Origin: an uncultured virus (IMG/VR IMGVR_UViG_3300013108_000147)
Lineage: Duplodnaviria; Heunggongvirae; Uroviricota; Caudoviricetes; Crassvirales
Length of the DNA: 20,000 nt
Direction: 5' to 3' (one strand)
IMG/VR virus record: IMGVR_UViG_3300013108_000147
The notes beneath the pieces are model-generated. The model saw only the letters and a list, made by a program, of their open reading frames with translations. It was not told the DNA's origin and did no database searches. The position numbers and the translations under genes were made by a program. Each line of letters opens with the position of its first letter. The stretch's first letter is position 1. Positions 2,920-20,000 of this stretch are shown here, piece by piece.

Positions 2920-3795
2920 TTAATTATATTTTTTGTTATACCAAGCTAACTTGTTTAAATCTAGCTTAGCGTTATTAGACTTCATGCTTCCTCCGTTTAT
3001 AAACAGTTTGATTGCTTTTTCTTTGTTTATAATGTTATTGGATTTGTTGTCTTCCTTAGGTGACCAACCTAGTCTAAGTATGTAGTTGAGTAGTGCGTCA
3101 TTACTGATGTTGCTTAAGTCTATCTCATCGGAATCTCTCTTAGACAACTTCTTTCCTGAACTGTGGCATACTAAACCTACGTGTGTAAATTTAGGTAAAT
3201 CTTTTTCAATTACAAAACTTTCGTTCAATAATTTCCAAATTAATGTTTGTTTATACGTATTAGATATGTGGTCTACTCCGCGAACTATCCACGTTACATC
3301 TTCATCGTAGTCGTCTACTGTAGATGCAAAGTTGTATGCCGGTGAGCCGTCAGACTTCATTATAACTTGTTCTGAGGCGTACCCTGCAATTTGGTCGTTA
3401 GCTTTCTTTAAACCTGTCAAAGTATCTGTCCAACTACAAGCGTCAACTTTAGTGGTTCCGTCGTAAAGTTCGTAACCTTTATTAAGTCTTATACATCCGT
3501 CATCTTCGATAGCCATACCTAATTCTACAAGTTGATTAGCTACTTCTCTATATCTGCCAAACCTCTCAGACTGCTTGAAAGTCTTGTCGTAGTCTAGACC
3601 AAGCCGTGATAGTGAATCAAATATGGGTTGTATAAGTTCCTCTCTACTACGTGTTAAGTCAGTGTCATCAACACGGACTATAAACTTAGAGTTTGTGTCT
3701 TGCTTAGATATAAGCCAATTGTGGTAAGCTGTTCTAAGTGTACCTATGTGTAACATACCAGTAGGTGATGGTGCTATTCTAACTATTTCTGCCAT
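2920..3795 (-). CDS. Glutamyl-tRNA synthetase catalytic-domain-only protein (GluRS/GluQ-RS-like, 291 aa)
   Basis: RIAPSPTGMLHIG (HIGH), RVDDTD, QSER, YNFASTVDD, IVRGVDH, KKLSKRD (KMSKS), NYILRLGWS, LDLNKLAWYN, then stop; the C-terminal anticodon-binding domains are absent. Confidence 0.92.
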   Translation of the reverse strand: MAEIVRIAPSPTGMLHIGTLRTAYHNWLISKQDTNSKFIVRVDDTDLTRSREELIQPIFDSLSRLGLDYDKTFKQSERFGRYREVANQLVELGMAIEDDGCIRLNKGYELYDGTTKVDACSWTDTLTGLKKANDQIAGYASEQVIMKSDGSPAYNFASTVDDYDEDVTWIVRGVDHISNTYKQTLIWKLLNESFVIEKDLPKFTHVGLVCHSSGKKLSKRDSDEIDLSNISNDALLNYILRLGWSPKEDNKSNNIINKEKAIKLFINGGSMKSNNAKLDLNKLAWYNKKYN

Positions 3796-3799
3796 TGTT

Positions 3800-4177
3800 T
3801 TAAAGTATTATTAATGTGTCGTATAAACTGTTTTGTTCTTCTTTTGATAGAGAGTTCATAAAGTATTTGATATCTGATATATCTTCTAGCGTCTCTATAG
3901 CGCTTCTGACGTGGTGATTCGGGTCGTACACCTCTTTGAATAAAGATATAGCTTTGTTAACACTCGTTATACCCTCATCTAATTTAAGATGTTTGCCTAT
4001 GCTTTTATTGTTCATAAGCATTTGGTCGTAATATAAATCCTCTACCCAAAGGTAGTTGTGGATTATCATAAGAAATCTTTGCGCCTTTTTCGCGTCTTTC
4101 ACGTGGCTTTTATAACCTAGAAGTCTTATGTATCTTCTAAGAGCCTTTTGTCTATTTCTAATATCTTCTCTTGTCAT
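3800..4177 (-). CDS. Hypothetical protein
   Basis: ORF track; operon packing. Confidence 0.7.
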   Translation of the reverse strand: MTREDIRNRQKALRRYIRLLGYKSHVKDAKKAQRFLMIIHNYLWVEDLYYDQMLMNNKSIGKHLKLDEGITSVNKAISLFKEVYDPNHHVRSAIETLEDISDIKYFMNSLSKEEQNSLYDTLIIL

Positions 4178-4262
4178 TATTTCTGTTTTATTTCTTCAAA
4201 ATGTATTTTATGGTAGCGACATTCGTGTCGTTAGCATCGGCTTCAATTTTTATACAGAGCCG

Positions 4263-4460
4263 TTACCACCCATAAGAGTTGTACATTTTTACTATATCCT
4301 CTCTTGTTATAGTTGTGTCTTCCATAAATTCACCATAACCAAACATTTTGTGTTCATAGTGAAATTTTTGTGACTTAGATAATTTATTCCACCACTTAAT
4401 AGCTTTATTACGTGTGGTAACACCACCTAAATTTAATTTATTCTCTTCGTTCATAAACAT
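4263..4460 (-). CDS. Cassette-associated hypothetical protein
   Basis: ORF track; starts inside attC-like element 4414-4482; its TAA stop lies in the GTTA core at 4262. Confidence 0.65.
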   Translation of the reverse strand: MFMNEENKLNLGGVTTRNKAIKWWNKLSKSQKFHYEHKMFGYGEFMEDTTITREDIVKMYNSYGW

Positions 4461-4486
4461 AATTTTAGCTTAACCGTTGTAAGTAA

Positions 4487-4780
4487 TTAAAGGTTCATTT
4501 CTTTTATTTTCATATAAACCATCATTAGTTCAAACAAACTATAACTTGTTTTCTTATAAAGGTATATATTTTCTCCTTGTACGCTTACATACTTTTCACA
4601 CCAATCATCAAAGGTCAGTTCCTTTTTGCTCTTTAACTCCGTACAACAATGTGTATAATTAATAGCTTCTATATCGTTCATTAAACAAGCTACTGTTTTA
4701 ATTGTTTTTTTGTCTGCATCAGCTTTTTCTATGTAAAAATCTATTACTCTTTGCAATATCTGTTTCTTATAATTATCCAT
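4487..4780 (-). CDS. Cassette-associated hypothetical protein
   Basis: ORF track; N-terminal half is encoded in the loop of attC-like element 4641-4835 and reads through the arm as INYTHCC. Confidence 0.65.
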   Translation of the reverse strand: MDNYKKQILQRVIDFYIEKADADKKTIKTVACLMNDIEAINYTHCCTELKSKKELTFDDWCEKYVSVQGENIYLYKKTSYSLFELMMVYMKIKEMNL

Positions 4781-4829
4781 TTTTATTATTTTTAGTTATT
4801 ATTCAAGCTACTAATCATACACTCGTCCG

Positions 4830-5018
4830 TTATGCACCATTACGCAAACTCTTACCTTGCTCTTTCGCCAAAGTTTTTAGTGTTTCCTTTTTTATTAAAA
4901 TACCCTTACAAGGCATTGTTCTGCAAATTGTTTCACAGCCTTCTCTTTCCAATAAATCTAAACCGCATTTAGTGCAAGGTATCCTACCAAGTTCATTGTA
5001 AGTATCTACTACATCCAT
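4830..5018 (-). CDS. Cassette-associated small Cys-rich protein (CxxC...CxxxC)
   Basis: ORF track; stop TAA in GTTA core at 4829. Confidence 0.6.
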   Translation of the reverse strand: MDVVDTYNELGRIPCTKCGLDLLEREGCETICRTMPCKGILIKKETLKTLAKEQGKSLRNGA

Positions 5019-5078
5019 TTTTTACAATTTAAAATTAACGGTGCATAACACCATATAAAATTCATTTCGTTCCTCCCG

Positions 5079-5288
5079 TTAGCCACAATTAACAGGTTGC
5101 TCTTTTGCCATTGTAGCGTTTTCTAAAATACTTATAGCTTGGTTTAGTTCTGAGATAGCATCTAAATCAGCATCAGTATCGGGGCAAGGTGCATCTATCT
5201 TACAGTTTCTTTTTATAAAACTATTTTCTATAAACGTATCCTTTGCTTTTTCTCGTTGTTCTTTTAGTTGTTGAATAATTCTTTCCAT
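5079..5288 (-). CDS. Cassette-associated hypothetical protein (MERIIQQLKEQ...)
   Basis: ORF track gives 5357 as the longest start; ATG at 5288 lies inside the cassette; stop in GTTA core at 5078. Confidence 0.6.
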   Translation of the reverse strand: MERIIQQLKEQREKAKDTFIENSFIKRNCKIDAPCPDTDADLDAISELNQAISILENATMAKEQPVNCG

Positions 5289-5399
5289 AATTAAATTAAC
5301 TGTGGCTAACACAAAAGATAGTGAATAGCCGATTAAACATTTGTTTTTCATAGCCAAGTTTAAGGTGTCGGCTACTCACCATATTCAAGCACGTTGTAG

Positions 5400-5612
5400 T
5401 TAATGTTTTTTACGAAACTTTCGCCATTTAATTTTAATCCATTCTACTAACACAATCACACCAAAGGCAAGTATTAATATCCCAAATATTGATAAACCTA
5501 TTACGTCTTTCCAATTCCAAAACATTGTTGTATCGTTACCGCAAGAGGTAAAAAACACTAACAACAACATTGTATATAGTGCATAGCTTGTTTTTGTTCT
5601 TAATCGTTTCAT
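5400..5612 (-). CDS. Cassette-associated membrane lipoprotein
   Basis: LLLVFFTSC lipobox plus a second TM helix and basic tail; starts inside attC-like element 5562-5692. Confidence 0.65.
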   Translation of the reverse strand: MKRLRTKTSYALYTMLLLVFFTSCGNDTTMFWNWKDVIGLSIFGILILAFGVIVLVEWIKIKWRKFRKKH

Positions 5613-5698
5613 TTTGCTTTTTATTTAAGTTATTTATAAATCATTATTTCGTGCTATAAGGTCGCTACGACACCATACACTAAGCGTTGTGTGTAATG

Positions 5699-6085
5699 CT
5701 ATACTTGCTTGTTAATTTCCTTAAAACACAATATACACTCAGGGTATTGTCTTCTACTATTAAAACTATAAAAACCGCCTTCCATATATTGTTTCCACAA
5801 TTCACTTTTTCTTTTAATTTCTAAAACATCTACCAATAAAAATTTATTAGGATTTAATTTTACAAAATCCCAAGATTTTTTATCTAAAAATCCTTTAAAA
5901 TCACCACTTTGTTTTAATGAGTTGTAATAATTACCTTCATTAATAGTGATAAAAGTTCCTCCGTATTCTCTTGTAAAAGTGTTAAGTTTTACTTTGTTTC
6001 CTTTTGATATTACAACTTGTTTTAAATCTTCTTTTGTCAGTTTTTCAGTATAAAATCTTTTTCTAAGTTTTGAAAGTTCACTCAT
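5699..6085 (-). CDS. Cassette-associated hypothetical protein
   Basis: ORF track; wholly contained in cassette 5686-6128. Confidence 0.7.
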   Translation of the reverse strand: MSELSKLRKRFYTEKLTKEDLKQVVISKGNKVKLNTFTREYGGTFITINEGNYYNSLKQSGDFKGFLDKKSWDFVKLNPNKFLLVDVLEIKRKSELWKQYMEGGFYSFNSRRQYPECILCFKEINKQV

Positions 6086-6177
6086 TATTTCTATATATCA
6101 TTAATTAATAATCCGCACTACACACAACAATATGTATAGTGCATTTTCGTGCCTCAAACGACACCATACACTCAAAG

Positions 6178-6450
6178 TTAGCCACAATTAAATGCCTTTA
6201 ACGTCTCTTCTATCATTGTTTGCCCTACGTAAGTATGTGTACTTTCATTAAATCTGTCTGCCAAATCATTTAACAGTTCACGTTGTTGGCTAACATCAGA
6301 TAAAACAAATTCTATGTCATTGTCATTTATCCGATGGTCTGACCAAGTAATCGCACTTTGAAACAAATCATTCCAATCTGTTGTGCTCTTGTCTATTGTT
6401 ACATCACTGCCTTCAATTTGTAGGTATATTTTTTTAGGTATATTTTTCAT
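6178..6450 (-). CDS. Cassette-associated hypothetical protein (MKNIPKKIYLQI...)
   Basis: Likely ATG at 6450 inside loop of attC-like 6288-6483; reads through the arm as FVLSDVSQQRELL; stop in GTTA core at 6177. Confidence 0.65.
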   Translation of the reverse strand: MKNIPKKIYLQIEGSDVTIDKSTTDWNDLFQSAITWSDHRINDNDIEFVLSDVSQQRELLNDLADRFNESTHTYVGQTMIEETLKAFNCG

Positions 6451-6488
6451 AATCAAACTTGTTTTATCTGTGATACGTTGTATCACAT

Positions 6489-6722
6489 TTATGGTTGTTT
6501 AAATACATTGTCTGCCCACTTAATATATTTCAAAGCATAATCAACACCTGTTAATATATAAGCTAAGTTTAGAGGTACTGCCAACACAATAAACACGATT
6601 GATAAGACAAGGTTTCCTACTGCATATCTTAAACGTGCTACAACACCGTATAAACTTAATTTAGGTTTCTTTTCTAATCCTAAACTTTTAATCATATATT
6701 CTGCGTCTATTTCTTTTTTCAT
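6489..6722 (-). CDS. Cassette-associated membrane protein
   Basis: ORF track; hydrophobic helix; crosses the half-site at 6635-6660 as LSLYGVVAR. Confidence 0.65.
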   Translation of the reverse strand: MKKEIDAEYMIKSLGLEKKPKLSLYGVVARLRYAVGNLVLSIVFIVLAVPLNLAYILTGVDYALKYIKWADNVFKQP

Positions 6723-6742: not shown

Positions 6743-7156
6743 TTACACATCAATCAACTCGAATGATTTAGCATTTCTTGTTTTATCGTTCCAATATTTT
6801 TTGTTTAGTTCGTAAGCATCAGACATTCTCAAACCCATAGTTTCAGCAAGTATGTAGAATGGTTTAGTTAAGTAGTTAAATGCTAATGTCATTTCTGTTG
6901 CATCTCCTTCAAAAATTACTTCTTTTTTGTCGTTTAAAATTTGTTTCATATCACTTCGTTGGCTAACAATAGATACACTCAAATTTTTAACCTTAGCTTC
7001 GAGCCATTCTACGTATTCATCACAAAAACCATCTTCATAAGGTGTTTGTCCTGCGTAATCCTGTCTAACAGCCATCACACCATATCCGTTTTCTTTTTTA
7101 AACTTTTCTCTTAAATCCATATTTACTTCTTTTTTGTCGTTTAAAATTTGTTTCAT
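6743..7156 (-). CDS. Chimeric hypothetical protein with duplicated N-terminus MKQILNDKKEV
   Basis: ORF track; 34-bp perfect direct repeat in frame. Confidence 0.65.
   Translation of the reverse strand: MKQILNDKKEVNMDLREKFKKENGYGVMAVRQDYAGQTPYEDGFCDEYVEWLEAKVKNLSVSIVSQRSDMKQILNDKKEVIFEGDATEMTLAFNYLTKPFYILAETMGLRMSDAYELNKKYWNDKTRNAKSFELIDV
6916..7156. repeat. 34-bp perfect direct repeat (6916-6949 and 7123-7156)
   Basis: TTACTTCTTTTTTGTCGTTTAAAATTTGTTTCAT twice, 207 bp apart. Confidence 0.95.
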
Positions 7157-9137: not shown

Positions 9138-9160
9138 TGTTTGTTTATTTAATGTTTTAA

Positions 9161-11764
9161 TTATTCTGATTCTTTCATCTCCTCTAAGTACTCTTCATAG
9201 TACTCAACTAACACGTACTCATCGGCATCGGTAACATGATAATCAGAGTGCTCTAAGCTAAACTCTGTACCCGACTGAGCGCATGTTCCCATATCGTCAC
9301 AATCCCTAACATAACCGCCGTTATAATCTACGTAAATAGCGTGAGATTCGTGTATGTACTCTCCGTCAAGCAACTCTACTGCGTCATCGTTCAATATATA
9401 CTCACCTGAATATTCGCAGTAAGTAGCGTTATCTATGTGTGTATTTATTCCTCTACTATCTATGTAAACAGCGTCTCCGCTATATATGTATCTATGATCC
9501 CAATCGTCGTACTCTCTTTCTTCCAAGTTACTGTGCTCACCTTCAGTAGACCTAAGCTCTGTTACCTCGTCACGGCTACTCAAGTACCCCGACAATTCTC
9601 CCGAATCTATATTAAGGTAGTAGAATGTGTCTAAGTAAGGGAATCCATCGTCATCACTTGGTATATGGTCAAGCATAATACTTATGTCTTCAGAGCTCTC
9701 TGTTTCATTTCCGTCAGGAGACACAAAGTTACACGTTGAAGAGTCTTGATGTTCTTTACACCAAAAACCTTTGTCTCTTGCAAAACTCTTGAAAGCGCTG
9801 ATAGTGGCATCAGTACCATATATTCTGTCTAGCCACTTATTATCCCAAAGAAGTGCCCTACCTTTAAGTAGGTCATCCTTAGTTAGAATAACCAATTTAA
9901 CTTGGTTAGGGTTCTCTGTGTATATATCTAACCAAGGTAAACATTGTTCGTGTCTCATGCATGACGAGCCTAGTGTACCTACGTTTTCATTGTGGTGATT
10001 AGAGCCGTCATACCAATGTCTTATATCCTCTCCTGTAACTATACTGAAATTTCCTACGCTATACTCGCCTTTGATAGAGTTAACTAACTTCTCAATCTCG
10101 TGGTCAGTAAACTTCTTTCTAGGTACTTGCTCGCTAAGTACTTTCCTAATCAACTTGCCGTACTTTGACGATTGTCTGCCTTTAGAGCTCCATTTGTAAC
10201 CGTCTGTTATCACAGTCTCCTTGCCTGCAGGCGTGTAAGTCATAGATTGGTCTGCTTTAATCGTGATGTTTCTAGTACTGTCTTTGTAGTAGCCTAAAGA
10301 ACTAATCTTAGTAAGAGTTTTAGCTACAGAGTTTTTATCTGCAAACTTCATTAGAACATTAAATAAACTTTCAGAAAACAATTGTGTCTCTAAGTCAGAG
10401 TTATATCTTGGCGTCATGCTATACAACTTATGTCTTTTACGGAATATTAGTCTTTGACTCCAATTAGATTCTCTAATATTCCTTTCAAAATTAGCTATGT
10501 ATCTCAACGTATCGTTATACTTAGCCGCGTCTTCAGAGTTAGCTCTCCTTATAACTATTTCAGTGTTATCAACCGTAAACGTGTTTCCAAAGTTCGTGCC
10601 GGAGTACCTTATATATTCGCCCGATTGTTTATCAACTACTACTAACTTTCTTGTTTTCCAATACTTAACTAAGCGTTCTTTCCCGTATTTTACTACGTAG
10701 AGTTCTCCCGACCTAAGACTTGTGACTGATAGTGAATCTTCTTTTGTATTACCATTAAGTAAAGCGTAATTAAATGCTCCCGTATCCGCAATGGTAGTTA
10801 TTTCGTAAAGTGCGTGCCCTTTGTAATTAACGAGTAAGTCTAGCACAGTGTTGTAATAACCAACAACGTATTCACCCTCAGACGCAACATAGCCTTCGTA
10901 TACTCTGATTACGGTTATTCCCCCTCCATTCCCAAAACTGTTCTTAATATATAGGGTTGACTTACCTTCTTCAAACAAATCTCTGCTGATAGCTGAGATT
11001 GATTCCTCGCTAAGCTCTACGGGTACGAAACTATCTTCTGTAAATGTTTCGCCTTTATCATGCATTGCAACCCCAGTTGCTTGTCGAAGCGCTTCGTTTA
11101 AATTGAACATTACTGCCTCTACCTCGTACATGTTTCTAACTTTAACAGTGGCTATATTAGGTGCAAAGTGACTATGCTTCTTTTCAATCACTAAAGAGTT
11201 ACCTAACATAAGCCTGCTATTAATCATGTACTTAAAATTTGGTAAAATGTATTGTAGAGTCTCTAAGCTACCGTAGAGTCTTCTTGAGTCTTCTACCATT
11301 ACACCTAGCACACCTTCGCCGTCTATAAGTAGTGTAAGAGACTCATACCCATATTCGTTGTCAGTCATACTACGTATAGCGTCAAGAAGATAAGGTATGT
11401 GTTCACCTAAAGAGTAGTGCAGTGAGGTAAACGCTGTTACAAACTTACTCAAGTCTCTATCTTTTGTACTACTAAAACTTGACGTTGGTGAGCCTTCATA
11501 ATAGCTGAATTCATGTTTTAGAGCCGATTGTAAAAGCTGCTTAGGTATTTCGTCTGACAAACGCAATAGTGGTATATACCCCACATTTAAACAACGCTTA
11601 ACAGATGATACGTTTAAACTATGTATCACAGTATCCGAATGCCTTGCTGTTCTAAACTCTTGCAAGTTAGAGTTGGAGTCTGTTAAAAAGGGTACTGTTA
11701 GTTCCTCGTGGCTTTTGTTCTTGTCTGAATCCGTCAGTAATTCTTCGTGAAAAAGTCTCTTCAT
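9161..11764 (-). CDS. Large phage protein of unknown function (867 aa)
   Basis: Long ORF; C-terminal half has SCMR...GRALLW...WLDRIY...FPYLDTF motifs and acidic Tyr/Cys repeats. Confidence 0.85.
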   Translation of the reverse strand: MKRLFHEELLTDSDKNKSHEELTVPFLTDSNSNLQEFRTARHSDTVIHSLNVSSVKRCLNVGYIPLLRLSDEIPKQLLQSALKHEFSYYEGSPTSSFSSTKDRDLSKFVTAFTSLHYSLGEHIPYLLDAIRSMTDNEYGYESLTLLIDGEGVLGVMVEDSRRLYGSLETLQYILPNFKYMINSRLMLGNSLVIEKKHSHFAPNIATVKVRNMYEVEAVMFNLNEALRQATGVAMHDKGETFTEDSFVPVELSEESISAISRDLFEEGKSTLYIKNSFGNGGGITVIRVYEGYVASEGEYVVGYYNTVLDLLVNYKGHALYEITTIADTGAFNYALLNGNTKEDSLSVTSLRSGELYVVKYGKERLVKYWKTRKLVVVDKQSGEYIRYSGTNFGNTFTVDNTEIVIRRANSEDAAKYNDTLRYIANFERNIRESNWSQRLIFRKRHKLYSMTPRYNSDLETQLFSESLFNVLMKFADKNSVAKTLTKISSLGYYKDSTRNITIKADQSMTYTPAGKETVITDGYKWSSKGRQSSKYGKLIRKVLSEQVPRKKFTDHEIEKLVNSIKGEYSVGNFSIVTGEDIRHWYDGSNHHNENVGTLGSSCMRHEQCLPWLDIYTENPNQVKLVILTKDDLLKGRALLWDNKWLDRIYGTDATISAFKSFARDKGFWCKEHQDSSTCNFVSPDGNETESSEDISIMLDHIPSDDDGFPYLDTFYYLNIDSGELSGYLSSRDEVTELRSTEGEHSNLEEREYDDWDHRYIYSGDAVYIDSRGINTHIDNATYCEYSGEYILNDDAVELLDGEYIHESHAIYVDYNGGYVRDCDDMGTCAQSGTEFSLEHSDYHVTDADEYVLVEYYEEYLEEMKESE

Positions 11765-11815
11765 TTTTTATTGTTTTAATTGTATTTAAGTTTTACTTCT
11801 AGTTCTGATAGTGAA

Positions 11816-11980
11816 TTAACCGTATATGCCGAACTGATAAGTTTGTTCAGTTGTTAGGAGGGTGTACAAAATTAATAAGGCGCACCCCGCTATAAAGCCT
11901 ACTACGCAATAAGATATGCGCATGGTTAATTCTGTAGGCTCTCCGTTGTTGTCTACAAACTTGTTTAAAAGTGTTTTCAT
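11816..11980 (-). CDS. Small membrane protein
   Basis: Probable ATG at 11980 (MKTLLNKF); one TM helix. Confidence 0.6.
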   Translation of the reverse strand: MKTLLNKFVDNNGEPTELTMRISYCVVGFIAGCALLILYTLLTTEQTYQFGIYG

Positions 11981-12089: not shown

Positions 12090-12329
12090 TCATACTTTTG
12101 GTACGTATTGAGTTATATTTCTATCGTCTACATAAATGTCTAGTGGCACATGCCCTGTAACTTCAACCATAACGATTTCTACTGCGTCGCTAGGTATGTC
12201 TACAACTGTTTCAAATTCTGCAGTTGCAAGGTCGTTTGCGCAAACATTGTTAATAAAATGATTTCCACCGTGGTCTACTCGGTTCTTGTTTCCGTTTGCG
12301 TCTGTCCAAACTTGATTAAAATATCCCAT
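12090..12329 (-). CDS. Hypothetical protein
   Basis: ORF track; AT-rich leader. Confidence 0.7.
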   Translation of the reverse strand: MGYFNQVWTDANGNKNRVDHGGNHFINNVCANDLATAEFETVVDIPSDAVEIVMVEVTGHVPLDIYVDDRNITQYVPKV

Positions 12330-12358
12330 TTTCTATTTGATTTTAAGGGTTAAACTTG

Positions 12359-12438
12359 TACCCGCAGTGTGATTCGAACACACGTCTAAACATCTGTGTA
12401 TCATAGATGAATTGTCCTAACCTCTAGACGATGCGGGC
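12359..12438 (-). tRNA. tRNA-Glu-scaffold tRNA-like RNA with aberrant 25-nt anticodon arm (copy 1)
   Basis: GCCCGCA/TGCGGGT acceptor stem, TC-GTCTAGAGGTTAGGAC-A D arm, AGAC variable loop, GTGTG-TTCGAAT-CACAC T arm; no canonical anticodon loop, no encoded CCA. Confidence 0.8.
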
Positions 12439-12451
12439 GCACTTTAATTAT

Positions 12452-12883
12452 TTATATTAAGCTATTACGTAGCTTATCTATAAACGATTCAACCTCATTG
12501 GATTGTTTTTCTATTTCGTCACTCCATACCTTTGCTAGATGAATAGAAAGGATTTGATTTTCTTTTAAAACACGTTCTTTTGTCCAAATATTTTCAGTAC
12601 CAAACCAAACAGTGTCCCATCCTACTACCCACATGTCCTCCATGTCTGCAACCTCTTCCCATCCTATAATATCGTCTGAGTTTTTAGAGAATGTAAGATT
12701 AACATGAGCATGGTGTTCTAACTTCTTATTTATCTCACCATATCCTAAACCGAAGTACGGATGTCTTCTTGGTAGTGCAACATATCCGTTTCCCCAACCT
12801 CCTAACCCTTGTGGAGTCCAAGTGTTTTCTTTTAAAAATGCTTTCATGATATTTATATTAAATTTGTTTATTATCTCAGCCAT
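12452..12883 (-). CDS. Conserved phage hypothetical protein (NGYVALP..HP...LTF...WVVGWD family)
   Basis: ORF track; motif pattern recalled from phage proteins. Confidence 0.75.
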   Translation of the reverse strand: MAEIINKFNINIMKAFLKENTWTPQGLGGWGNGYVALPRRHPYFGLGYGEINKKLEHHAHVNLTFSKNSDDIIGWEEVADMEDMWVVGWDTVWFGTENIWTKERVLKENQILSIHLAKVWSDEIEKQSNEVESFIDKLRNSLI

Positions 12884-13113
12884 CTGTTCAATTTTAAAGC
12901 TATTTTATATCTTAAAGTATTGCCGTGTTTTGCACGATTGATAGTGAACGCTATCTTATAGATTTGATAACCCACGACCATAGCAGTTAAGCCTACAGTT
13001 TTAACTACTACAAATGTTTGTAGGTTAAAGCCATTAGTTTGTTCTGCTAACACTAAGCATAGCCCTGCCATTATAAGCAAAGCTGATATGCTAAAAGTTA
13101 ATATGTGTCTCAT
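12871..13113 (-). CDS. Two-TM membrane protein
   Basis: ORF track; two hydrophobic helices, basic C-terminus. Confidence 0.7.
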   Translation of the reverse strand: MRHILTFSISALLIMAGLCLVLAEQTNGFNLQTFVVVKTVGLTAMVVGYQIYKIAFTINRAKHGNTLRYKIALKLNRWLR

Positions 13114-13115
13114 GA

Positions 13116-13268
13116 TTATATTAGTTTTAATTGCCTTTGCATTTCTTTATAGCGCATAATATCCCACGCTTTTTTATAGCCTATGTTATGTAATTGCATT
13201 AATTTATGCACCATTTTTTCTTCGATAGACTGCACTCGCATACGTCTACGTTTTGGTTTATTTGCCAT
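13116..13268 (-). CDS. Small basic protein (50 aa, MANKPKRRRMRVQSIEEK...)
   Basis: Manually translated; AT-rich leader, abuts next gene. Confidence 0.6.
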   Translation of the reverse strand: MANKPKRRRMRVQSIEEKMVHKLMQLHNIGYKKAWDIMRYKEMQRQLKLI

Positions 13269-13291
13269 TTTTATTTAATTTAATTGATTTG

Positions 13292-13371
13292 CACCCATAG
13301 ACAGATTCGAACTGCCGTCTATACACCGCGACGATTTTAGTGTATTGTCCTAGCCACTAGACGATATGGGC
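13292..13371 (-). tRNA. tRNA-Glu-scaffold tRNA-like RNA with aberrant 25-nt anticodon arm (copy 2)
   Basis: GCCCATA/TATGGGT acceptor stem, TC-GTCTAGTGGCTAGGAC-A D arm, ATACAC-13nt-GTGTAT arm, AGAC, GGCAG-TTCGAAT-CTGTC T arm. Confidence 0.8.
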
Positions 13372-13375
13372 ATGA

Positions 13376-13408
13376 TATAAAAAGCCCTACACTTTTACAT
13401 GTAGGGCT
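13376..13408 (-). terminator. Terminator-like hairpin between Rho-N gene and tRNA-like copy 2
   Basis: AGCCCTACA-8nt-TGTAGGGCT (13383-13408) running into a T-run on minus strand. Confidence 0.6.
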
Positions 13409-13438
13409 GTGAGGGATATGGATTGAGGCAAAAAAGGT

Positions 13439-13861
13439 TTATGCCGTTACTAAAGCTATTAATTCAGCTTTTTTCATCTTTGAAAATTTGGTTTTACCTT
13501 GTTTTTTAGCTACCTCTTTAAGCTGCGCTACGTTCATCTTCTCAATTGGAGTTAATGTAGGTGCAGTATCAGATAAATTCGCAGCGCTTTTAATAGCCTT
13601 GTGTATTGCTTGTAACACAAAGAATGGGCTGTAATTTCCTGCCTTTGAAACTCGCACGTTCTCCTTGAATGTAGCGTAAACATCGTTGTTTTCTCTAATC
13701 TCACTCAATATTTGAATGTATTGCGTGCTAAGCTCTATTTCATCTCTAAAAAGCCACAGTATTTTTACTGCACCTCCTAATGATTTGCACTCTCGTTTTA
13801 ACGCCTTGTTAGTGTTTAAAACGTTCATTTTGTAAGCTGAAATTTTGTTTGATTTTGCCAT
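13439..13861 (-). CDS. Protein with C-terminal Rho termination factor N-terminal (HeH-like) nucleic-acid-binding domain
   Basis: IEKMNVAQLKEVAKKQGKTKFSKMKKAELIALV matches the Rho_N consensus. Confidence 0.8.
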   Translation of the reverse strand: MAKSNKISAYKMNVLNTNKALKRECKSLGGAVKILWLFRDEIELSTQYIQILSEIRENNDVYATFKENVRVSKAGNYSPFFVLQAIHKAIKSAANLSDTAPTLTPIEKMNVAQLKEVAKKQGKTKFSKMKKAELIALVTA

Positions 13862-13903
13862 AATTTAAAAATTTAATTATTGTTTATTGATTTTAATTAA
13901 TAG

Positions 13904-14604
13904 ATGCCCATGACAATATGCACTACGTGTCATGGGCTATTGATATGTACCACTTTTGTGGATTTCACGCACTGGTTTACTGCGCTTATGTAAATATATG
14001 TATACGGATTTATTCCGTTGGTGTAACTTAATAAAATGTTGGGTTTTTTTGAGCCTTGAAATATACACGTTAGTACCACAGCTATTTTATTGTACTTTTG
14101 ATAACTCATTACCTAGAGATAAAACCCGTCTGAAAAATGTTGGCGTATCGCTGACTAATGTATATGCAGGTTAGTTTCATACCTTTCCTGCCAACCACTC
14201 GAATAATCACGCTAGGGTATTTTACTCCCATTGTCACGCAGTGGCAACCTTTTTACACCTTTACGGTGCCCTATATGCGTTCACGCTTCTCACGCCCAAC
14301 TGATAGGTTTTAATTCGTTTCAGTAAGGATTCTACTCACTTTGCGCTATAATAGTAGTTTAACGTGACTAAACTCGCCATACGATTCACCCAATGCGCTG
14401 CACTCCTAATGCTTGACCATACCTGTGCTTACAGGGCATTTCACCCTTATTATATGCTTACACCTTTGTGCTTAGCATACCTGCTGAATTGCAGTACACG
14501 TGTAGAATTGCCATTCTACCATGGCGCCATTGTGGCTCCAAAACTACTTCGCTACCTAGTAACAAAGTTTTAAAATCATGTTGAAATCGTTATTTCGTTT
14601 CAAC
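13904..14604 (-). ncRNA. Candidate large structured non-coding RNA / leader (~700 nt)
   Basis: No minus-strand ORF of 60 aa or more; many hairpins; promoter directly upstream; closing 10-bp hairpin at 13906-13937. Confidence 0.5.
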
Positions 14605-14608
14605 AGTA

Positions 14609-14616
14609 CAAACATA
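14609..14616 (-). promoter_or_regulatory. Bacteroidota -7 promoter element (TAnnTTTG) driving leftward transcription
   Basis: Minus strand TATGTTTGTACTGTTG; near-identical TATATTTGTACTGTTG at 16911 on plus strand. Confidence 0.65.
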
Positions 14617-14635
14617 CGTGGCATTTTTGACATAG

Positions 14636-15939
14636 TAAAATCCTGATAATCAAGCAGTTAGAAATTAAAGTGTTGATAATCAGACAGTTAGCTAAGTAGC
14701 TGAGTATCAAGGACTTAAGCAAAATGCCTTCTCGGTTAAAGCGCTGAGTATCAGGTAGTTAGCTTGTTTGTAATCGCCGTTTTTCCCAAACTGAAAACCT
14801 AGAGTAAAAAAAATTCAAAAAAAATTAAAAAGGGCTTATAAGTAACTGATATTCAAGTAGTTACAAGCAAAAAAAATTTTAAAATTAGCTTTAAAGTTAA
14901 AAGGTTGATAATCAAGCAGTTATAAAATCGAGTTTGTAAGTAGCTGAGTATCAATAAGTTATAAATTTAAAAAATTACGTTTGTAAGTATCTGAGAATCA
15001 AGTAGTTAGAGTAAGTAGTTGATAATGAGGCAGTTACGTTAAAGTGTTGATACTCAAGTAGTTAGATTAAAACGTAGTTAAAAGTTAAAGCGCTGAAAAT
15101 CAGGTAGTTAAGTTTTGGCTAGGTAGCAGTTAAACTAAAGTACTGATACTCAAGGGTTTAGGTACAAAGAGTGTTTGTAAGTAGCTGAGGTTCAGGCAGT
15201 TACGATTCTGGCTCATAAGGTAGATTAAAGGTAAAACGTTGATAATGAGGCAGTTACGGCTAAGTAGCTGAGTATCAGGCGCTTACACCGGCACCGAGAA
15301 TTAAATAGTCGTAACTATCTGAAAGTCAGGCAATTAGGCGTAACTATCTGAGAATCAGGCGCTTACACTGGCACCGAGACTTAAATAGGCGTAACTATCT
15401 GAGTATCAGGCGCTTACACCGGCAAGCATATTTAAGTAGTTGTAACTATCTGAGAATCAGGTAATTAGACGTAACTAATTGATAATGAGGCAGTTAGATT
15501 AACTCTTAAAGTATATGGAATTCGCGCGCGCGTAAAGAGCGTAACTATCTGAGAATGAAGCAGTTAGACGTAACTAATTGATAATGAGGCAGTTACGGTA
15601 GAGTGGGTGAATTGAGTGGGTAAATAATTGATAATGAGGCAGTTACGGGTAAGTGTTTGATAGTCAAATGATTAGAGTATAAGTAGTTAATAGTAATATA
15701 TAAGCCTGAGTATCAAGCAGTTAGAATAAAAAACCTACAATACATAACTGTTAAGCGCCTGATTGTCAAGGTGTTAAGTTTGTTAAGCTAGTGTTTAACA
15801 GATTTTACAGATACATTAGACAAAAGATGTAACTATCTGAGTATCAGCGATTTAGACTAGTGTTTTAGGGCATTTCAATAAATAAGTTATTAAAAAAGTC
15901 AAAAAATTTGCTCGTAAAAGCCTGAAAATCAAGCCCGTA
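14636..15939. repeat. Array of ~28 quasi-palindromic 25-bp repeats TAA-N5-TGA-N3-T(C/G)A-N5-TTA (IHF-consensus-like)
   Basis: Copies counted by eye from 14636 to 15915; right half fits WATCARNNNNTTR in most copies. Confidence 0.9.
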
Positions 15940-16032
15940 CGCCTAAAAAAATCGGTTTTCCTTTTCAAAAAATTCCCGTTCCATTTATGTAATACCTTTG
16001 TACCTAGTCCGTCCTCAATAATTTCAAATTGG

Positions 16033-16064
16033 CTTGCATATGTGGAAAATATTTCGTATATTGC
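16033..16064 (+). promoter_or_regulatory. Rightward promoter CTTG-N20-TATATTGC
   Basis: Same geometry as 173-204 and 18108-18139; additional TACCTTTG -7 box at 15993-16000. Confidence 0.65.
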
Positions 16065-16103
16065 AAAGACAGGAAAGTTACAACTAATTAAAATTACCGT
16101 AAA

Positions 16104-16265
16104 ATGGGCGTTAAAACACCAAAAAATGAGAAAAATACAGAGGTTTCGGCATACCCGTGCTTTACTGAGGAAGCTATAACTATCACTACTTCCTTCAAAG
16201 TACCCGTACCCGTTACATACAGGGTTGCTACGCCTCGCAAAATAAATAAAAGTGACGACAACTAA
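16104..16265 (+). CDS. Possible small protein (53 aa, MGVKTPKNEK...)
   Basis: Manually translated; downstream of promoter. Confidence 0.35.
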   Translation: MGVKTPKNEKNTEVSAYPCFTEEAITITTSFKVPVPVTYRVATPRKINKSDDN

Positions 16266-16293
16266 GTTTCAAATAATTTAAAGCCAAATAAGG

Positions 16294-16641
16294 GTGAAAA
16301 CACAAAAAGAGACAGAGCAGAAAATAAATCACGGCCTAAGTAATGAATTATACACATTGTTGTGCGCCGTTGATTTTAAGCCGAAGTCAATGGCTTTTTA
16401 TAATAGTAGACAAAAACCTGATGGAAGTTGGGATAACTTTTTAGACCACGTTGACTGTATGCAAAAGTACGTTAAAAACCATATGGGCGGAAACTATGGA
16501 TTAGCTGACGAATATCTAATAGTAAAGCACGATGGGATATTTAATTTTCGATACTTTGGCGACTCTTCTGCTAAAATAGAAAAGATTGCAGAAGCAGATA
16601 AGGAAAGTGTTTTGCAGTATTGTGTACTAAAATCGTTGTAA
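16294..16641 (+). CDS. Hypothetical protein crossing an orphan attC-like half-site (NELYTLLCAV)
   Basis: ORF track (GTG start); 18-nt identity to the reverse complement of the attC-like arm at 4644-4661. Confidence 0.7.
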   Translation: MKTQKETEQKINHGLSNELYTLLCAVDFKPKSMAFYNSRQKPDGSWDNFLDHVDCMQKYVKNHMGGNYGLADEYLIVKHDGIFNFRYFGDSSAKIEKIAEADKESVLQYCVLKSL

Positions 16642-16665
16642 TTTAATTATAAAAACAAAGTAAAA

Positions 16666-16833
16666 ATGGAAGATTTAAAAGTATTAGCCACAGCGCTAAA
16701 TGACGCTACTAAAAAAGGGGCCTTCAATCTTGATGAAGCAGTAGCGATTTCTCAATCAATTAACAATTTAGTTAAGGCGTTGAAAAATTGTGAAAAATGC
16801 AAGCCTTGCGACTCAAATTGTGAAAAAGAATAG
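16666..16833 (+). CDS. Small protein with Cys-rich C-terminus (55 aa, MEDLKVLATALNDATKKGAFNLDEA...CEKCKPCDSNCEKE)
   Basis: Manually translated; A-rich leader. Confidence 0.7.
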   Translation: MEDLKVLATALNDATKKGAFNLDEAVAISQSINNLVKALKNCEKCKPCDSNCEKE

Positions 16834-16910
16834 CACTTTGTCGGATAAATTGACATGTTTTTAAATAAAACTATGGTTTTTCCGTAAAATTATTGTATTT
16901 GTTTTATGTT

Positions 16911-16918
16911 TATATTTG
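16911..16918 (+). promoter_or_regulatory. Bacteroidota -7 element TATATTTG
   Basis: Exact TAnnTTTG, followed by TACTGTTG as at the leftward promoter. Confidence 0.55.
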
Positions 16919-16966
16919 TACTGTTGTATTAAAATGATTATAATATAGCGTAAGCAATCGAAACTA

Positions 16967-16994
16967 GCCTACCTCTTTCGGGGTAGGTTTTTTT
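16967..16994 (+). terminator. Rho-independent terminator
   Basis: GCCTACCTC-TTTC-GGGGTAGGT followed by T-run. Confidence 0.85.
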
Positions 16995-17055
16995 ATGCTC
17001 CAATTTTTCTTATATTGTTACCCTAAAACGTTTTAATAATTAAAATCATAGTATT

Positions 17056-17385
17056 ATGGCAAAGAATGGGCCCGTTAAAAAGGGGAAAAAGAAGACCCAC
17101 GTAGTAAAGGGTAAAAAGAATACTACATTGGTCACGAGTAAGTCTGTAGCGGACGCTAAGAGTAAATCAGGAGTTTTTAAAAGTAGGCCTGCGTATAAAG
17201 GTAAGGAATCTAAATCAGGAGTCACAACTCACGACGGTACTTTTCATAAAGTGACTGGCCCTGTATCAAGAAGAGCTGCTAGAAAAGTCTTAGCTAAAGA
17301 CAAAGCTCTATACGGAGCAAGCTCTGCGGCTCATAGTGCAAGAACTAATAGGTTCGCGACTGCAAAAAGAAGAAAAAGTAAATAA
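17056..17385 (+). CDS. Highly basic Lys/Arg-rich (histone-like) protein
   Basis: 109 aa, K/R/A/S-rich, few acidic residues; followed by a terminator. Confidence 0.75.
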   Translation: MAKNGPVKKGKKKTHVVKGKKNTTLVTSKSVADAKSKSGVFKSRPAYKGKESKSGVTTHDGTFHKVTGPVSRRAARKVLAKDKALYGASSAAHSARTNRFATAKRRKSK

Positions 17386-17417
17386 TATAGAAAGGAGACT
17401 ACAAATATATCTTAGAA

Positions 17418-17445
17418 GAGGCCTACTTAATAGTAGGTCTTTTTT
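17418..17445 (+). terminator. Rho-independent terminator
   Basis: AGGCCTACT-TAAT-AGTAGGTCT followed by TTTTT. Confidence 0.85.
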
Positions 17446-17450
17446 ATTAC

Positions 17451-17485
17451 GCCCCCTCTAACAAAAGCCCCCTCTAACAAAAGCC
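17451..17485. repeat. 16-bp tandem duplication GCCCCCTCTAACAAAA x2
   Basis: Direct reading. Confidence 0.85.
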
Positions 17486-18107
17486 TACCTTAGAAAAAAG
17501 CCGCGCGCGCCGCTAATAAACTGATAGAAGCATACAATTCCCCTATAGGTACAAATAGAACTCTCCAAGTTAAGAGGTACTTATTTATATAAAGTTACAA
17601 TTAAATATAGGGGGGCATAGATATGTAGCTTTGAAAAAAGCAAAGAGTTTACCTGCTCCCCCGAGACTGAGTTTAAAGCTTACAGTTACAGTACGCTTTA
17701 TCATGCTCCGAAGCCGCAAGGCATCACTTGCACTCTCACTGGCGTTCGTTCACAAGTGAAACGGATTTAAAAATTTTGTTTTTTAGCGAGGAACTGTAAC
17801 TTTGTGGGTGCAGTACCTAGAGGGAGGCAGAACCTAAAAGGGTACTTATTAGTAGCTCTTAAAAAAGAAATACTATAATTTTCGCGTCCCTTAAAAAAAC
17901 ATTAGATTTAAAAATTGTGACGGCTAAGTCACTGATTAGCTAAAAACACTCGTAAGACCGTTATTCACACGGACGCATTATTAATCAATTGAAATCTAAA
18001 AAGAATGTGAGACGTGTCAAAGGAGATTTAAGTTGCCTGAACCAAGTGCCTTACGATTATGACACAAGTTTAGAAACTTTTTACGTAGATTTTCGACTAC
18101 TGATACT

Positions 18108-18139
18108 GCAATATACAAAAAATATTTCATATATCCAAA
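18108..18139 (-). promoter_or_regulatory. Leftward promoter TTTG-N20-TATATTGC pointing into an ORF-free region
   Basis: Minus strand TTTG-GATATATGAAATATTTTTTG-TATATTGC; second -7 box TATATTTG at 18182-18189. Confidence 0.7.
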
Positions 18140-18309
18140 TCGCAACAAAAAATACCTAATCGTCGCGGTATACTTGCACTACAAATATAAGGATTATTTT
18201 AACGCGGTATTTTTACGCCCAAAGCCTTATTGCAACTGAGTGTTAATAACTTTTCTTATGCTCGCATAGTACTAAAAAAAGCGTAAAGAAAAAAGTCTTA
18301 TATTGCACC

Positions 18310-18873
18310 ATGAAAAGATTTGCTTACGTTTTTTCAATAGTGTTTATTTTATTTGTTAATTTAAAGGGGAGCTCGGCCTATATATCCAAATCACCACTTT
18401 CACACAATGCTACTCCCCTTTATTTTTTAGACACTTACAACGCATCCCCTATAAAAGTTGACAAACTCTTAGTACCTTACTACATATCATTTGTAAATTA
18501 TATAGAAGATAACGGCATAAAGTCTGAGTATTTAGTTAGGAAGCTAGATGATATAGTGCTTTACCCTTTAGAAGATGGGTTATACGGTCTTTACTCACCT
18601 GAAAATAGACAAATAGTAATAAACTCAAAGTATTTATACAGCGCCACTATATTAAGGAAGGTAATGTTCCATGAATTAGGGCATGTATACGGACTGAATC
18701 ACTCAGAAAGCGGTATAATGCAAACTTATCAGACACCCTTAGATATATACGCATCTTACTTTACAGGAGAAGAGTACGACCCCTCCATATGGGAACTGCA
18801 CAAAGCTAAAATGGCTCAAGACATAAAAAAGTCTTTTGTTTACGTTATTAGCAGAGAAAATTTGCTAGATTAA
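18310..18873 (+). CDS. Secreted/membrane-anchored metzincin (matrixin M10-like) Zn metalloprotease
   Basis: N-terminal signal/TM; HELGHVYGLNH (HExxHxxGxxH) followed by Met-turn GIM. Confidence 0.85.
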   Translation: MKRFAYVFSIVFILFVNLKGSSAYISKSPLSHNATPLYFLDTYNASPIKVDKLLVPYYISFVNYIEDNGIKSEYLVRKLDDIVLYPLEDGLYGLYSPENRQIVINSKYLYSATILRKVMFHELGHVYGLNHSESGIMQTYQTPLDIYASYFTGEEYDPSIWELHKAKMAQDIKKSFVYVISRENLLD

Positions 18874-18892
18874 AAAATAATTTGTATATTAG
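18861..18892 (+). promoter_or_regulatory. Promoter TTTG-N20-TATATTAG immediately upstream of ATG 18897
   Basis: Same 20-nt spacing as the other copies. Confidence 0.55.
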
Positions 18893-18896
18893 AGGT

Positions 18897-19259
18897 ATGA
18901 AACAGACAATATCATACCTAGAGACAATAAAGTTACCTCACAACGGAGAACTTACCAAAACGCTTACTAAAATCGAAGGACTTATTCACTCAGAGGAAGA
19001 TTTATCCAAAGAGGGTATAGGAATCTCTAAAATCTACACCATAGAGAATGAAGACGGTATTTTCAGGCTTACTATTTATTCTGATGGCTACGGAACCTTA
19101 GCTAATGTTAAATCAGGCCCGGAGCAACAGAAAATGTGTTTAGCAGAAAGAATTTTGAAGCTCGACAAAGATATTTTCCAAATGAAGCTTAAAATTAGAG
19201 ACTTAATCTTCGAGAGAGATTTTTACAAAGAGGAAGCAATGAAAAAGCAGCCCAAGTAG
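18897..19259 (+). CDS. Hypothetical protein with C-terminal coiled coil
   Basis: ORF track; probable ATG at 18897. Confidence 0.7.
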   Translation: MKQTISYLETIKLPHNGELTKTLTKIEGLIHSEEDLSKEGIGISKIYTIENEDGIFRLTIYSDGYGTLANVKSGPEQQKMCLAERILKLDKDIFQMKLKIRDLIFERDFYKEEAMKKQPK

Positions 19260-19267
19260 GCTGCTTT
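19244..19267. terminator. Bidirectional terminator between convergent genes
   Basis: AAAGCAGCC-CAAGTA-GGCTGCTTT. Confidence 0.75.
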
Positions 19268-19291
19268 GTTGTAAAGTTACTAAATGAATTA

Positions 19292-20000
19292 TTATCTTTC
19301 CTTAACTGACCAAGTTGAATCTATTTCTAAAGTACAGTTATCGTTATCTAACAGGTTTGCTATCTGCCAAAATACAAAATCATTCTGATTTAATATAACA
19401 GAAGTTTGTCCTGACCAAATACCTACATCCCTACCTCCTTGAAAGTTGTTAACTGTTCTTACTTGAGAATAAACTGTAGTTGTAACAGCGTTAGCATCTG
19501 TCTTCATTAAGAATAGTTCGTAATTATCGTTATTCTTACCGTCTATCAATAAATCCCAATTAACTGTAAACTCTCTAGGGTTAATACCTATGTGTCTTAA
19601 CCTACCTGCAGAAGGGCTGTCGAAATGTTGTAAGTCTATAGTAGAAAAGGTTCCGTTTAAGTCCACTTGCACATTCTGAGCACTTATAACAGTCTGAACC
19701 TCAGCGTCGTTGTTTATAGCTCCTCCAACAAATGTATTAGCTATCCCTATATTGTTATCCCAATCACAAGGTAAATCAGCAGGGGTTAAGTTAGGGAATA
19801 TGTTACTGTCGTTTGCATCAAAAGCGCCATCCCTACTTAATATAGCCCCTTTAACCTGAATAGTTGAAGGATTTGGGAAGTTGGCCACTTCAAAATCACA
19901 AAGTGGCGCTAACGTAGGTAAATCACAGTTAATATCAGTTAAAAACCTTGAGTTCATTTGGAATGCTACACCTTCTTTAAATAGTGGAGCAGTCATTGTG
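19292..20000 (-). CDS. C-terminal part of a probable virion structural (tail/fibre-like, beta-rich) protein
   Basis: 234+ aa, N/D/T/G-rich beta-strand composition; start probably beyond window; function inferred only. Confidence 0.55.
   Translation of the reverse strand, partial: TMTAPLFKEGVAFQMNSRFLTDINCDLPTLAPLCDFEVANFPNPSTIQVKGAILSRDGAFDANDSNIFPNLTPADLPCDWDNNIGIANTFVGGAINNDAEVQTVISAQNVQVDLNGTFSTIDLQHFDSPSAGRLRHIGINPREFTVNWDLLIDGKNNDNYELFLMKTDANAVTTTVYSQVRTVNNFQGGRDVGIWSGQTSVILNQNDFVFWQIANLLDNDNCTLEIDSTWSVKER

Follow-up and report, generated by a model that had tools for sequence, protein, structure and literature searches.

Small phage genes in matched inverted arms: an attC-like cassette array with N-terminal leaders shared among unrelated protein bodies

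The attC recombination sites of integrons follow the core consensus RYYYAAC / GTTRRRY. In the pdif modules of Acinetobacter plasmids, genes lie between inversely oriented recombination sites, and IS200/IS605-type elements move as single-stranded DNA in a hairpin-guided and strand-specific manner. On the protein level, T-even phages possess polymorphic internal proteins with conserved N-terminal targeting leaders, and polymorphic toxins swap their C-termini. Here, we describe an array of small genes in 20,000 nt of DNA from an uncultured virus of the Crassvirales (IMG/VR record IMGVR_UViG_3300013108_000147), a stretch that we call the window. Eight consecutive genes on its minus strand (6722-4262) each lie inside their own 14-nt inverted pair, R'/R''. 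A sequence-only reading of this DNA had described the junctions as attC-like hairpins in which open reading frames (ORFs) start, and had proposed that recombination at their core would fuse new N- and C-terminal halves.

By comparison of published descriptions, the closest phage analogue for modular shuffling is provided by the PeSLs, promoter-stem-loop cassettes of T4-type phages. Two reports describe them as short conserved intergenic modules beside small ORFan genes in plastic phage regions, where they are points of insertion, deletion and replacement (PMC2839356, PMC4122927). PeSLs are direct repeats with a sigma-70 promoter and a terminator and shuffle by homologous recombination, whereas the arms of the array are inverted, matched gene by gene and located partly inside ORFs. 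Sites of the integron type have also been found in phages. In a screen of 10,705 phage genomes, 17 integrase-less attC clusters (CALINs) were detected, one of which, in Polaribacter phage P12002L, consists of two attC sites predicted by HattCI and Infernal; IntI1 recombined P12002L_attC2, and there were no verified recombinants for P12002L_attC1 (PMC9892861). The terms 'start codon' and 'N-terminal' are absent from that report, and our literature search revealed no account of ORFs starting inside such sites, nor of N-terminal swapping.

On the 5' side of each gene, R' reads GTT-N7-GT, and on the 3' side R'' reads AT-N7-AAC, with fuller patterns of GTT-R-N5/6-M-GT.. and ..AT-K-N6-Y-AAC (Table 1). 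R' begins with GTT and R'' finishes with AAC at all eight junctions. The stem pattern, which recurs across loci, consists of ten Watson-Crick pairs, one conserved G·T wobble at position 11, on the coding strand, and three further pairs. Within the eight genes, R' and its own R'' pair at 13, 10, 14, 13, 14, 14, 12 and 13 of 14 positions (mean 12.9). Non-own pairs average 8.7/14, and junction neighbours, R''(n-1) and R'(n), which would form the local attC-like pairing, reach 6-11/14. The arms covary gene by gene, and each repeat has its partner at the other end of its own gene, not on the other side of the junction, a feature absent from the sequence-only reading.

A second pair of arms, L''/L', lies between the gene bodies and surrounds the start codon. 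A conserved 16-nt L' (AT-K-n-A-n-T-W-T-A-n5-T) stands upstream of every GTT, and L'' often follows AAC; junctions E4 and E6 have no clear L'' arm. In five of the eight genes the L arms additionally enclose the first 14-52 codons, and the ORF therefore runs through L' and the GTT core into the gene body. The reading frame of the shared DNA motif varies from site to site, and in some places, for example in junction E1, the motif is non-coding. Throughout the array, the conserved sequence is that of the stems and the variable sequence that of the loops.

The generic search for GTT../..AAC inverted repeats proved noisy, returning 26 pairs against a background of 10.9, with per-locus counts near background. 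Because such scans gave a high background in AT-rich DNA, a refined 12-position rule was needed, which demands complementarity at positions 4-10 (at most one mismatch), a G·T pair at 11 and a T·A pair at 12. Applied to the window and 10 related loci (171,088 nt), this rule yielded 26 G·T-type pairs compared with 2.8 in shuffles. The minus strand of the window contributes six canonical pairs, all in 4262-6644, versus 0.15 in shuffles, and the plus strand none. On the strand that shows the mismatch as G·T, R'' marks the end of an ORF in 22 of the 26 pairs. Among the framed ORFs of this set, the stop is the TAA of TAAC in nine and abuts the R'' 14-mer in eight, while R' is located upstream of the start in nine, within the ORF and with GTT forming a codon in ten, and in another frame in three.

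The array shares several traits with integrons. The coding-strand order R''(..AAC)-L''-loop-L'-R'(GTT..) is that of attC sites, AAC and GTT are invariant, and the stop is often the TAA of TAAC. Like integron cassettes, the phage cassettes have a 5' end complementary to their own R'' and are arrayed as small ORFs that look promoterless; their cargos include DNA methylases. However, the matched stem measures 14 bp with a fixed G·T instead of 6-7 nt, the loops contain start codons and as many as 52 codons, junction E1 keeps to its downstream gene in the contexts compared, and additional breakpoints fall inside the stems. The integrase gene intI (PF00589) was not found in the window, in the nearest record (G001) or in the complete crAss-like genome G005, and neither attI nor Pc was identified. 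The attC designation given by the sequence-only reading holds for a hairpin with AAC and GTT triplets; an integrase was not found, and 0/8 cores fit GTTRRRY. The inversely oriented flanking sites recall pdif modules, and hairpin-guided single-strand movement, were it to occur here, would recall IS200/IS605. T-even leaders and polymorphic toxins likewise combine a constant N-terminal coding block with many unrelated bodies; there the block is conserved as protein, whereas here it is a DNA motif that is read in various frames or is non-coding.

Five ORFs cross a core, and the sequence-only reading had placed them and their core peptides correctly on the minus strand: LNLGGVTT at 4413-4436, INYTHCC at 4643-4663, YALYTMLL at 5562-5585, FVLSDVSQ at 6286-6309 and LSLYGVVA at 6636-6659. 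Its prediction that homology breaks at the GTT core was borne out for 5/5 of these ORFs. In g6489, amino acids (aa) 1-27 match P12002L gp0042 at 25/27 positions (93%), and the remainder is unrelated. Four of five relatives of g6178 match only aa 1-48 to 1-57; these four lack the element and carry other C-termini on the same N-domain, and the fifth matches aa 1-82. Homologues of the g5400 body align over aa 20-70 and 22-70. Upstream DNA is present for one of them (locus L160), which has a different N-terminus and a different frame sequence, which is still complementary; an exact search for the L' site of g5400 gave no match. The BLASTP alignment of g4263 with locus L111 stops at aa 15, and in g4487 the alignment is confined to EAINYTHCC. 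Locus L110, on the other hand, holds a colinear, full-length homologue of g4263 with 89% identity. The DNA common to this locus and the window corresponds to 4262-4473, from one AAC to the next.

Series of joints were observed for junctions E6, E5 and E1. The leader MFMNEENKLNLG(G/S)V of E6 precedes five unrelated bodies in seven loci, with the break directly after GTT and each body in its own matched frame. The ..AINYTHC|C site of E5 and g4487 is present in 18 further loci. Fifteen N-halves at this site fall into 11 groups. One group of four N-halves (39 aa, 97-100% identical) is joined to three unrelated C-halves, the fourth being cut by the contig end, and a second group of two is joined to two unrelated C-halves. 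Among 17 C-halves, only 1/136 pairs is similar. The E5 L'' arm is found as an exact match 105-169 nt upstream in 14/19 loci, and three of the five misses have no upstream DNA. The E5 arms are identical (16/16 nt) in 13/14 loci while the loops vary freely, and the junction follows 12 different R'' in 14 loci.

For E1, a 14-mer scan of viral contigs returned 100 loci, six of which are true copies (five distinct), together with one relative. The module is 92-97% identical in five distinct viral contigs, and two copies are located in one contig of a metagenome-assembled genome (MAG). In eight contexts from seven loci the upstream R'' differs each time, and homology begins just after AAC. Seven unrelated cargos lie between identical E1 arms (0/21 pairs similar at E<=1e-3). 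The breaks are located at GTT for the E6 and E5 leaders and at AAC| for E1, and identity at the AAC| and |GTT joints extends over only 3-5 nt. At the level of sequence, the chimeric-protein outcome predicted by the sequence-only reading is established. As had been proposed, the start codon comes from the junction, together with an N-terminal module that would be translated as a leader, and the joints of natural chimeras coincide with the core; that such shuffling is a built-in purpose of the sites is a matter of interpretation.

Two further observations concern leaders and cores elsewhere in the window. An orphan L'+GTTGT site on the plus strand (16338-16371), of which 18 nt are identical to the g4487 site, lies within the plus-strand ORF 16294-16641; its reading frame differs, and no matching R'' was seen at the end of this ORF. 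A 41-nt direct repeat (6909-6949 and 7116-7156, 93% identity) within ORF 6743-7156 places the start MKQILNDKKEV at aa 1 and aa 70, a reused leader without an R frame.

The predicted folds differ between junctions. E5 (4634-4828, 195 nt) forms a 23-bp stem around ATG 4780 and 38 codons, with -35.6 kcal/mol and a z-score of -3.79, and 0/200 shuffles were as stable. J6178 (6281-6476, 196 nt) shows a 16-bp stem in both the minimum free energy (MFE) and the centroid structure; the element as a whole is unexceptional (z -1.22, matched by 21/200 shuffles). The MFE structure of E2 (5550-5685) likewise contains a 16-bp stem, yet the z-score of this junction, +0.57 (148/200 shuffles), is unremarkable because its loop is A-rich. 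The sense strand of E1 (6100-6177) folds with -24.2 kcal/mol (z -3.98) compared with -12.3 kcal/mol for the antisense strand, and E3 gives -27.7 (z -4.08) and -23.1 kcal/mol, respectively. An ORF start in the hairpin loop, suggested for the core-crossing ORFs by the sequence-only reading, is seen in g4487, g5400 and g6178 and is not evident in g4263, which has no convincing upstream arm by eye. As that reading had also noted, g6489 crosses a half-site, namely the downstream half only, and four ORFs (6178-6450, 5079-5288, 4830-5018 and 4263-4460) stop at the TAA of TAAC. Its proposal for g5400 likewise fits, R' being located in the hydrophobic core of a putative lipoprotein-like signal peptide.

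The cassette region is present in four metagenome runs of one study (X1-X4). Contigs from these runs break at junctions, and the depth over E1 is 5-9x that of the phage. A variant joint in 3/4 runs skips 353 nt, which is exactly junction E5 plus g4487, and hence one cassette; AACGG stands at both ends of the skip, and the shorter side measures just 25 nt. Other joints substitute cargo between arms at 5701-6105 and 6190-6271, and loose contig ends are located at 6105, 5683, 5075/5077 and 5032. These contigs show that variants exist, not how frequent they are or how they originated.

Comparable frames occur in other phages. In Cellulophaga phage phi18:3, gp106 and gp107 are framed likewise, and the methylase gp032 is the cargo of one frame. 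P12002L contains at least four canonical frames, G005 has five that look genuine, and the same design is found in G002, a 288-kb contig, and in other contigs. E3 is 82% identical to the gp107/gp106 intergenic region of phi18:3, and part of the last junction (4208-4255) matches, at 91.7% identity, a stretch of Cellulophaga phage phi46:3 that carries no annotation. Judging from these sequences, the cassette family is common to unrelated phages of marine Flavobacteriaceae. Of the two published P12002L sites, we located attC1 at a typical junction between two methylase cassettes, whereas attC2, on the opposite strand, makes use of the complement of R'' from one frame. On the minus strand of L025 (~2330-2400, contig G002) we observed an 'empty' frame with no gene inside, in the order L', R' GTTGTTGGCAAA, an 11-nt loop, R'' TTTGCCAAC and L''. 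In phi18:3, six small minus-strand genes (gp106-gp111, 52921-54703), at least two of them framed, lie inside a plus-strand structural module, and we read this block as a cassette island in the late region.

PHROG and Pfam searches revealed no recombinase among the window proteins. Pfam scans of 77 ORFs of G005 and 39 ORFs of G001, each of at least 90 aa, identified an ERF-family annealing protein, a flap (FEN-type) 5'-3' exonuclease, PolA, an RNA ligase and a PD-(D/E)XK nuclease; no transposase (TnpA) or XerC/D-type site pair was identified in this set. The ERF gene of G005 is located beside cassettes, and phi18:3 encodes RecT and RusA. About 1.2 kb past the window end, at G001:8918-9313 (L153:1201-1905), lies a 234-aa serine recombinase with Resolvase and Recombinase domains, the only site-specific recombinase seen in the available sequence of this phage.

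How could such joints arise? Arms that match cassette by cassette, and a wobble that always falls on one strand, indicate pairing in a single strand of coding polarity, and the numerous joints at which identity spans just 3-5 nt point to a structure- or site-directed step. The cargo swaps between identical arms, in turn, look like homologous exchange. On the strength of these three features we favour, tentatively, attC-like sites that would fold in single-stranded DNA, in combination with homologous exchange in the conserved arms. The coding strand, when single-stranded, would fold at the attC-type sites, and modules would be cut and rejoined at the stem feet, AAC| and |GTT, in the manner of integron cassettes. 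The enzyme would mostly not be phage-encoded and could be a host integrase, an Xer-type enzyme or one of another kind. Homologous or annealing recombination inside the conserved arms would swap the cargos, and the outcome would be leaders joined in frame to unrelated bodies. It is possible, if doubtful, that the array is more specifically an integrase-less, phage-borne analogue of the integron whose recombination sites have moved into coding sequence. Several results sit uneasily with attC-like folding. The phages have no common recombinase: among 10 records, PF00589 (tyrosine recombinase) is found in two, G002 and phi18:3, and PF00239 (serine recombinase) in G001 only, and the G005 and G001 scans show general recombination genes only. 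None of the eight R' 7-mers (GTTGTGT, GTTAGCC, GTTATGC and GTTACCA, for example) fits GTTRRRY, and the typical junction, P12002L_attC1, is the one that failed with IntI1 (PMC9892861). The frame downstream of E1 is constant across its eight contexts, a junction-downstream linkage opposite to that of integron cassettes, and a single crossover point leaves the unrelated cargos between identical E1 arms unexplained. Homologous recombination, moreover, also yields apparent breakpoints at the edges of conserved blocks, and the read evidence consists of contigs with short sides, not of raw reads.

We consider it somewhat unlikely that exchange alone, by homologous or single-strand-annealing recombination between co-infecting phages via the 16-40-nt arms in the manner of PeSLs, produced the array, with the stems serving an RNA role, insulating cistrons or keeping the A-rich start region open, and the chimeras as a by-product. 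In its favour, breakpoints fall at every edge of a conserved block, inner stem edges included, seven unrelated cargos share the identical arms of E1, and cargo has been replaced at 5701-6105 and 6190-6271. Annealing proteins exist, ERF in G005 and RecT in phi18:3, all wobbles are G·U on the mRNA strand, and the PeSLs provide a published phage precedent (PMC2839356, PMC4122927). Yet the AAC| and |GTT joints share 3-5 nt and are nevertheless diverse, with 12 upstream R'' in 14 loci, and exchange of this kind does not require complementary arms around the cargo; as for an RNA role, ribosomes would melt any stem within an ORF, and cleavage there would cost the message. Hairpins with purely regulatory functions, as terminators, processing sites or stabilisers of early transcripts, with illegitimate joints selected for intact stems, are an improbable explanation. 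The elements follow gene orientation, their stems are conserved while the loops vary freely, and three terminator-like hairpins were found against 0.7 expected, two of them the L'/R' hairpins of E1 and E4. However, arms that are identical (16/16 nt in 13/14 loci) across crAss-like, sipho- and jumbo-phage contigs indicate that the arms themselves spread, 5/8 sites lie inside ORFs, and a scan for sigma-70-like promoters, which does not cover Bacteroidetes promoters, found five sites versus 15 in shuffles and none in a junction. Least probable by far is the capture by phage of bacterial attC cassettes moved by a bacterial IntI, which would make the array classical integron debris. The two P12002L attC calls by HattCI and Infernal, one of which IntI1 recombined (PMC9892861), are in line with such an origin. 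Set against it, the cores depart from RYYYAAC/GTTRRRY, the E1 match to a bacterial genome is a single 2.4-kb MAG contig, the family is phage-wide, and the sites lie inside ORFs with junctions that appear linked to the downstream gene.

Further candidates were rejected. Invertible segments (shufflon or inverton) do not fit, as the G·T asymmetry never flips and no inverted copy was seen among the 26 pairs, and a transposon with L+R terminal repeats is at odds with L'' keeping to the downstream unit in 8/8 E1 contexts. RNase III release of cistrons as a general function conflicts with 5/8 sites being inside an ORF. Protein-level conservation of the core peptides was dismissed since E1 has the motif in non-coding DNA and 16338-16371 has it in a different frame. 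One R type resembles the XerC arm of the E. coli dif site; other R types differ, and the likeness is probably coincidence.

The window is AT-rich, phage-type DNA (35% GC) with many small ORFs, and is marine phage DNA related to Flavobacteriaceae phages. Its proteins include a T4 endonuclease V-like glycosylase and a peptidase. In the cassette region, only short patches match the Cellulophaga phages phi18:3 and phi46:3 and the Polaribacter phages P12002L/S (8 records). The nearest record, G001, is 98% identical and overlaps only window 12269-20000, and is therefore uninformative on the cassette region. PHROG and Pfam assigned no function to the eight cassette proteins, save for a weak membrane-protein match and a leader-only PHROG match. 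The features of the array are listed in Table 1.

Table 1. Coordinates of the cassette genes, their arms and the junctions between them (positions in the window)
Feature	Position	Strand	Description
g6489	6489..6722	-	77-aa ORF; aa 1-27 are a leader module common to P12002L gp0042; PHROG 30810 matches aa 1-27 only
L' 16-mer and R' 14-mer of g6489	6631..6660	-	Inside the ORF (LSLYGVVA); no upstream L'', hence a half-site
R'' of g6489	6477..6490	-	Ends AAC; 13/14 paired with own R'
Junction hairpin J6178	6281..6476	-	L'' ~6455-6470 pairs with L' ~6297-6312; R' 6281-6294 (FVLSDVSQ)
J6178 loop contents	6281..6476	-	ATG 6450 and 47-aa N-domain of g6178
g6178	6178..6450	-	90-aa ORF; N-domain MKNIPKKIYL..DIEF; stop is the TAA of TAAC
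R'' of g6178	6177..6190	-	Same type as g5079 R''; weaker own pairing, 10/14
Junction module E1	6100..6176	-	L'' 6162-6173, L' 6129-6144, R' 6115-6128 plus extension
g5699	5699..6085	-	128-aa cargo of the E1 frame; R' 43 nt upstream of ATG
R'' of g5699	5686..5699	-	14/14 stem including one G·T; TAG stop abuts
Junction E2	5550..5685	-	L'' 5664-5680 pairs with L' 5572-5587; loop with ATG 5612; R' 5555-5568 (YALYTMLL)
g5400	5400..5612	-	70-aa lipoprotein-like membrane protein
R'' of g5400	5393..5406	-	13/14 paired; holds the stop codon
Junction E3	5295..5392	-	15-bp L stem with two G·U (5368-5382 with 5318-5332); R' 5297-5310
g5079	5079..5288	-	69-aa cargo; ends NCG* in the TAA of TAAC; R'' 5078-5091
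Junction E4	5019..5077	-	L' 5050-5065, R' 5036-5049, no L''; terminator-like hairpin 5038-5054
g4830	4830..5018	-	62-aa Cys-rich cargo; stop is the TAA of TAAC; R'' 4829-4842
Junction E5	4634..4828	-	23-bp L stem, 4805-4827 with ~4645-4669; R' 4634-4647 (INYTHCC)
g4487	4487..4780	-	97-aa ORF; R'' 4476-4489, 12/14 paired
Junction E6	4408..4475	-	ATG 4460, 14-aa leader MFMNEENKLNLGGV, L' 4422-4437, R' 4408-4421
g4263	4263..4460	-	65-aa ORF; stop is the TAA of TAAC; R'' 4262-4275
Last junction	4178..4261	-	Upstream of gene 3800-4177

Other features of the window were recorded alongside the array. At 2920-3795 on the minus strand, the phage encodes a protein of 291 aa that contains the catalytic domain of a class I Glu/Gln tRNA synthetase (E 5.8e-50). 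An Rfam search of the window at E<=1 returned two tRNA matches and nothing else; these 80-nt matches, at 12359-12438 and 13292-13371 on the minus strand (41.3 and 50.7 bits), are mutually related (repeat families D17 and D20, 73-84% identity). ARAGORN reports none, and the pair may represent unusual or intron-bearing phage tRNAs. Dense 27-38-nt repeats fill 14600-15900, with 13, 11 and 13 copies in three overlapping families and a core like GTAACTATCTGAGAATCAGGCAGTTA; located between leftward and rightward gene blocks, this array has the appearance of an iteron-type replication origin. The motif TTCACTAT(C/G)A is recurrent on the minus strand at 1010-1036, 4346-4372 and 11798-11824, and also at ~7570 and 5318-5326. 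Its sites include junction E3 and two other intergenic regions, and it may be a phage promoter element. Finally, a perfect 14-bp inverted pair, GTTTATTTAATGTT / AACATTAAATAAAC, with its members 1.2 kb apart, lies across the end of an 867-aa ORF on the minus strand (9143-10368); it has no G·T and may have arisen by chance.

The published report covers two sites in one relative, whereas the family described here is much larger and departs from integron rules; most of its members would probably escape current attC finders. If the array is indeed an integron analogue that lacks an integrase, swapping of cassettes at the AAC/GTT feet would join leader or N-terminal modules to bodies in fixed phase, amounting to an intronless, prokaryotic form of exon shuffling. 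The crAss-like, sipho- and jumbo phages of Flavobacteriaceae would then share one cassette pool, run by a single-strand recombinase that is possibly supplied by the host. Accessory genes, with DNA methylases among the cargos, could spread in this way between unrelated phages of one host group. The cultured phages phi18:3 of Cellulophaga and P12002L of Polaribacter carry the elements, which makes the mechanism testable at the bench. The origin and turnover of small orphan phage genes are unexplained; in this array the joints are visible, and they offer a concrete, testable route by which new small phage proteins may be assembled.

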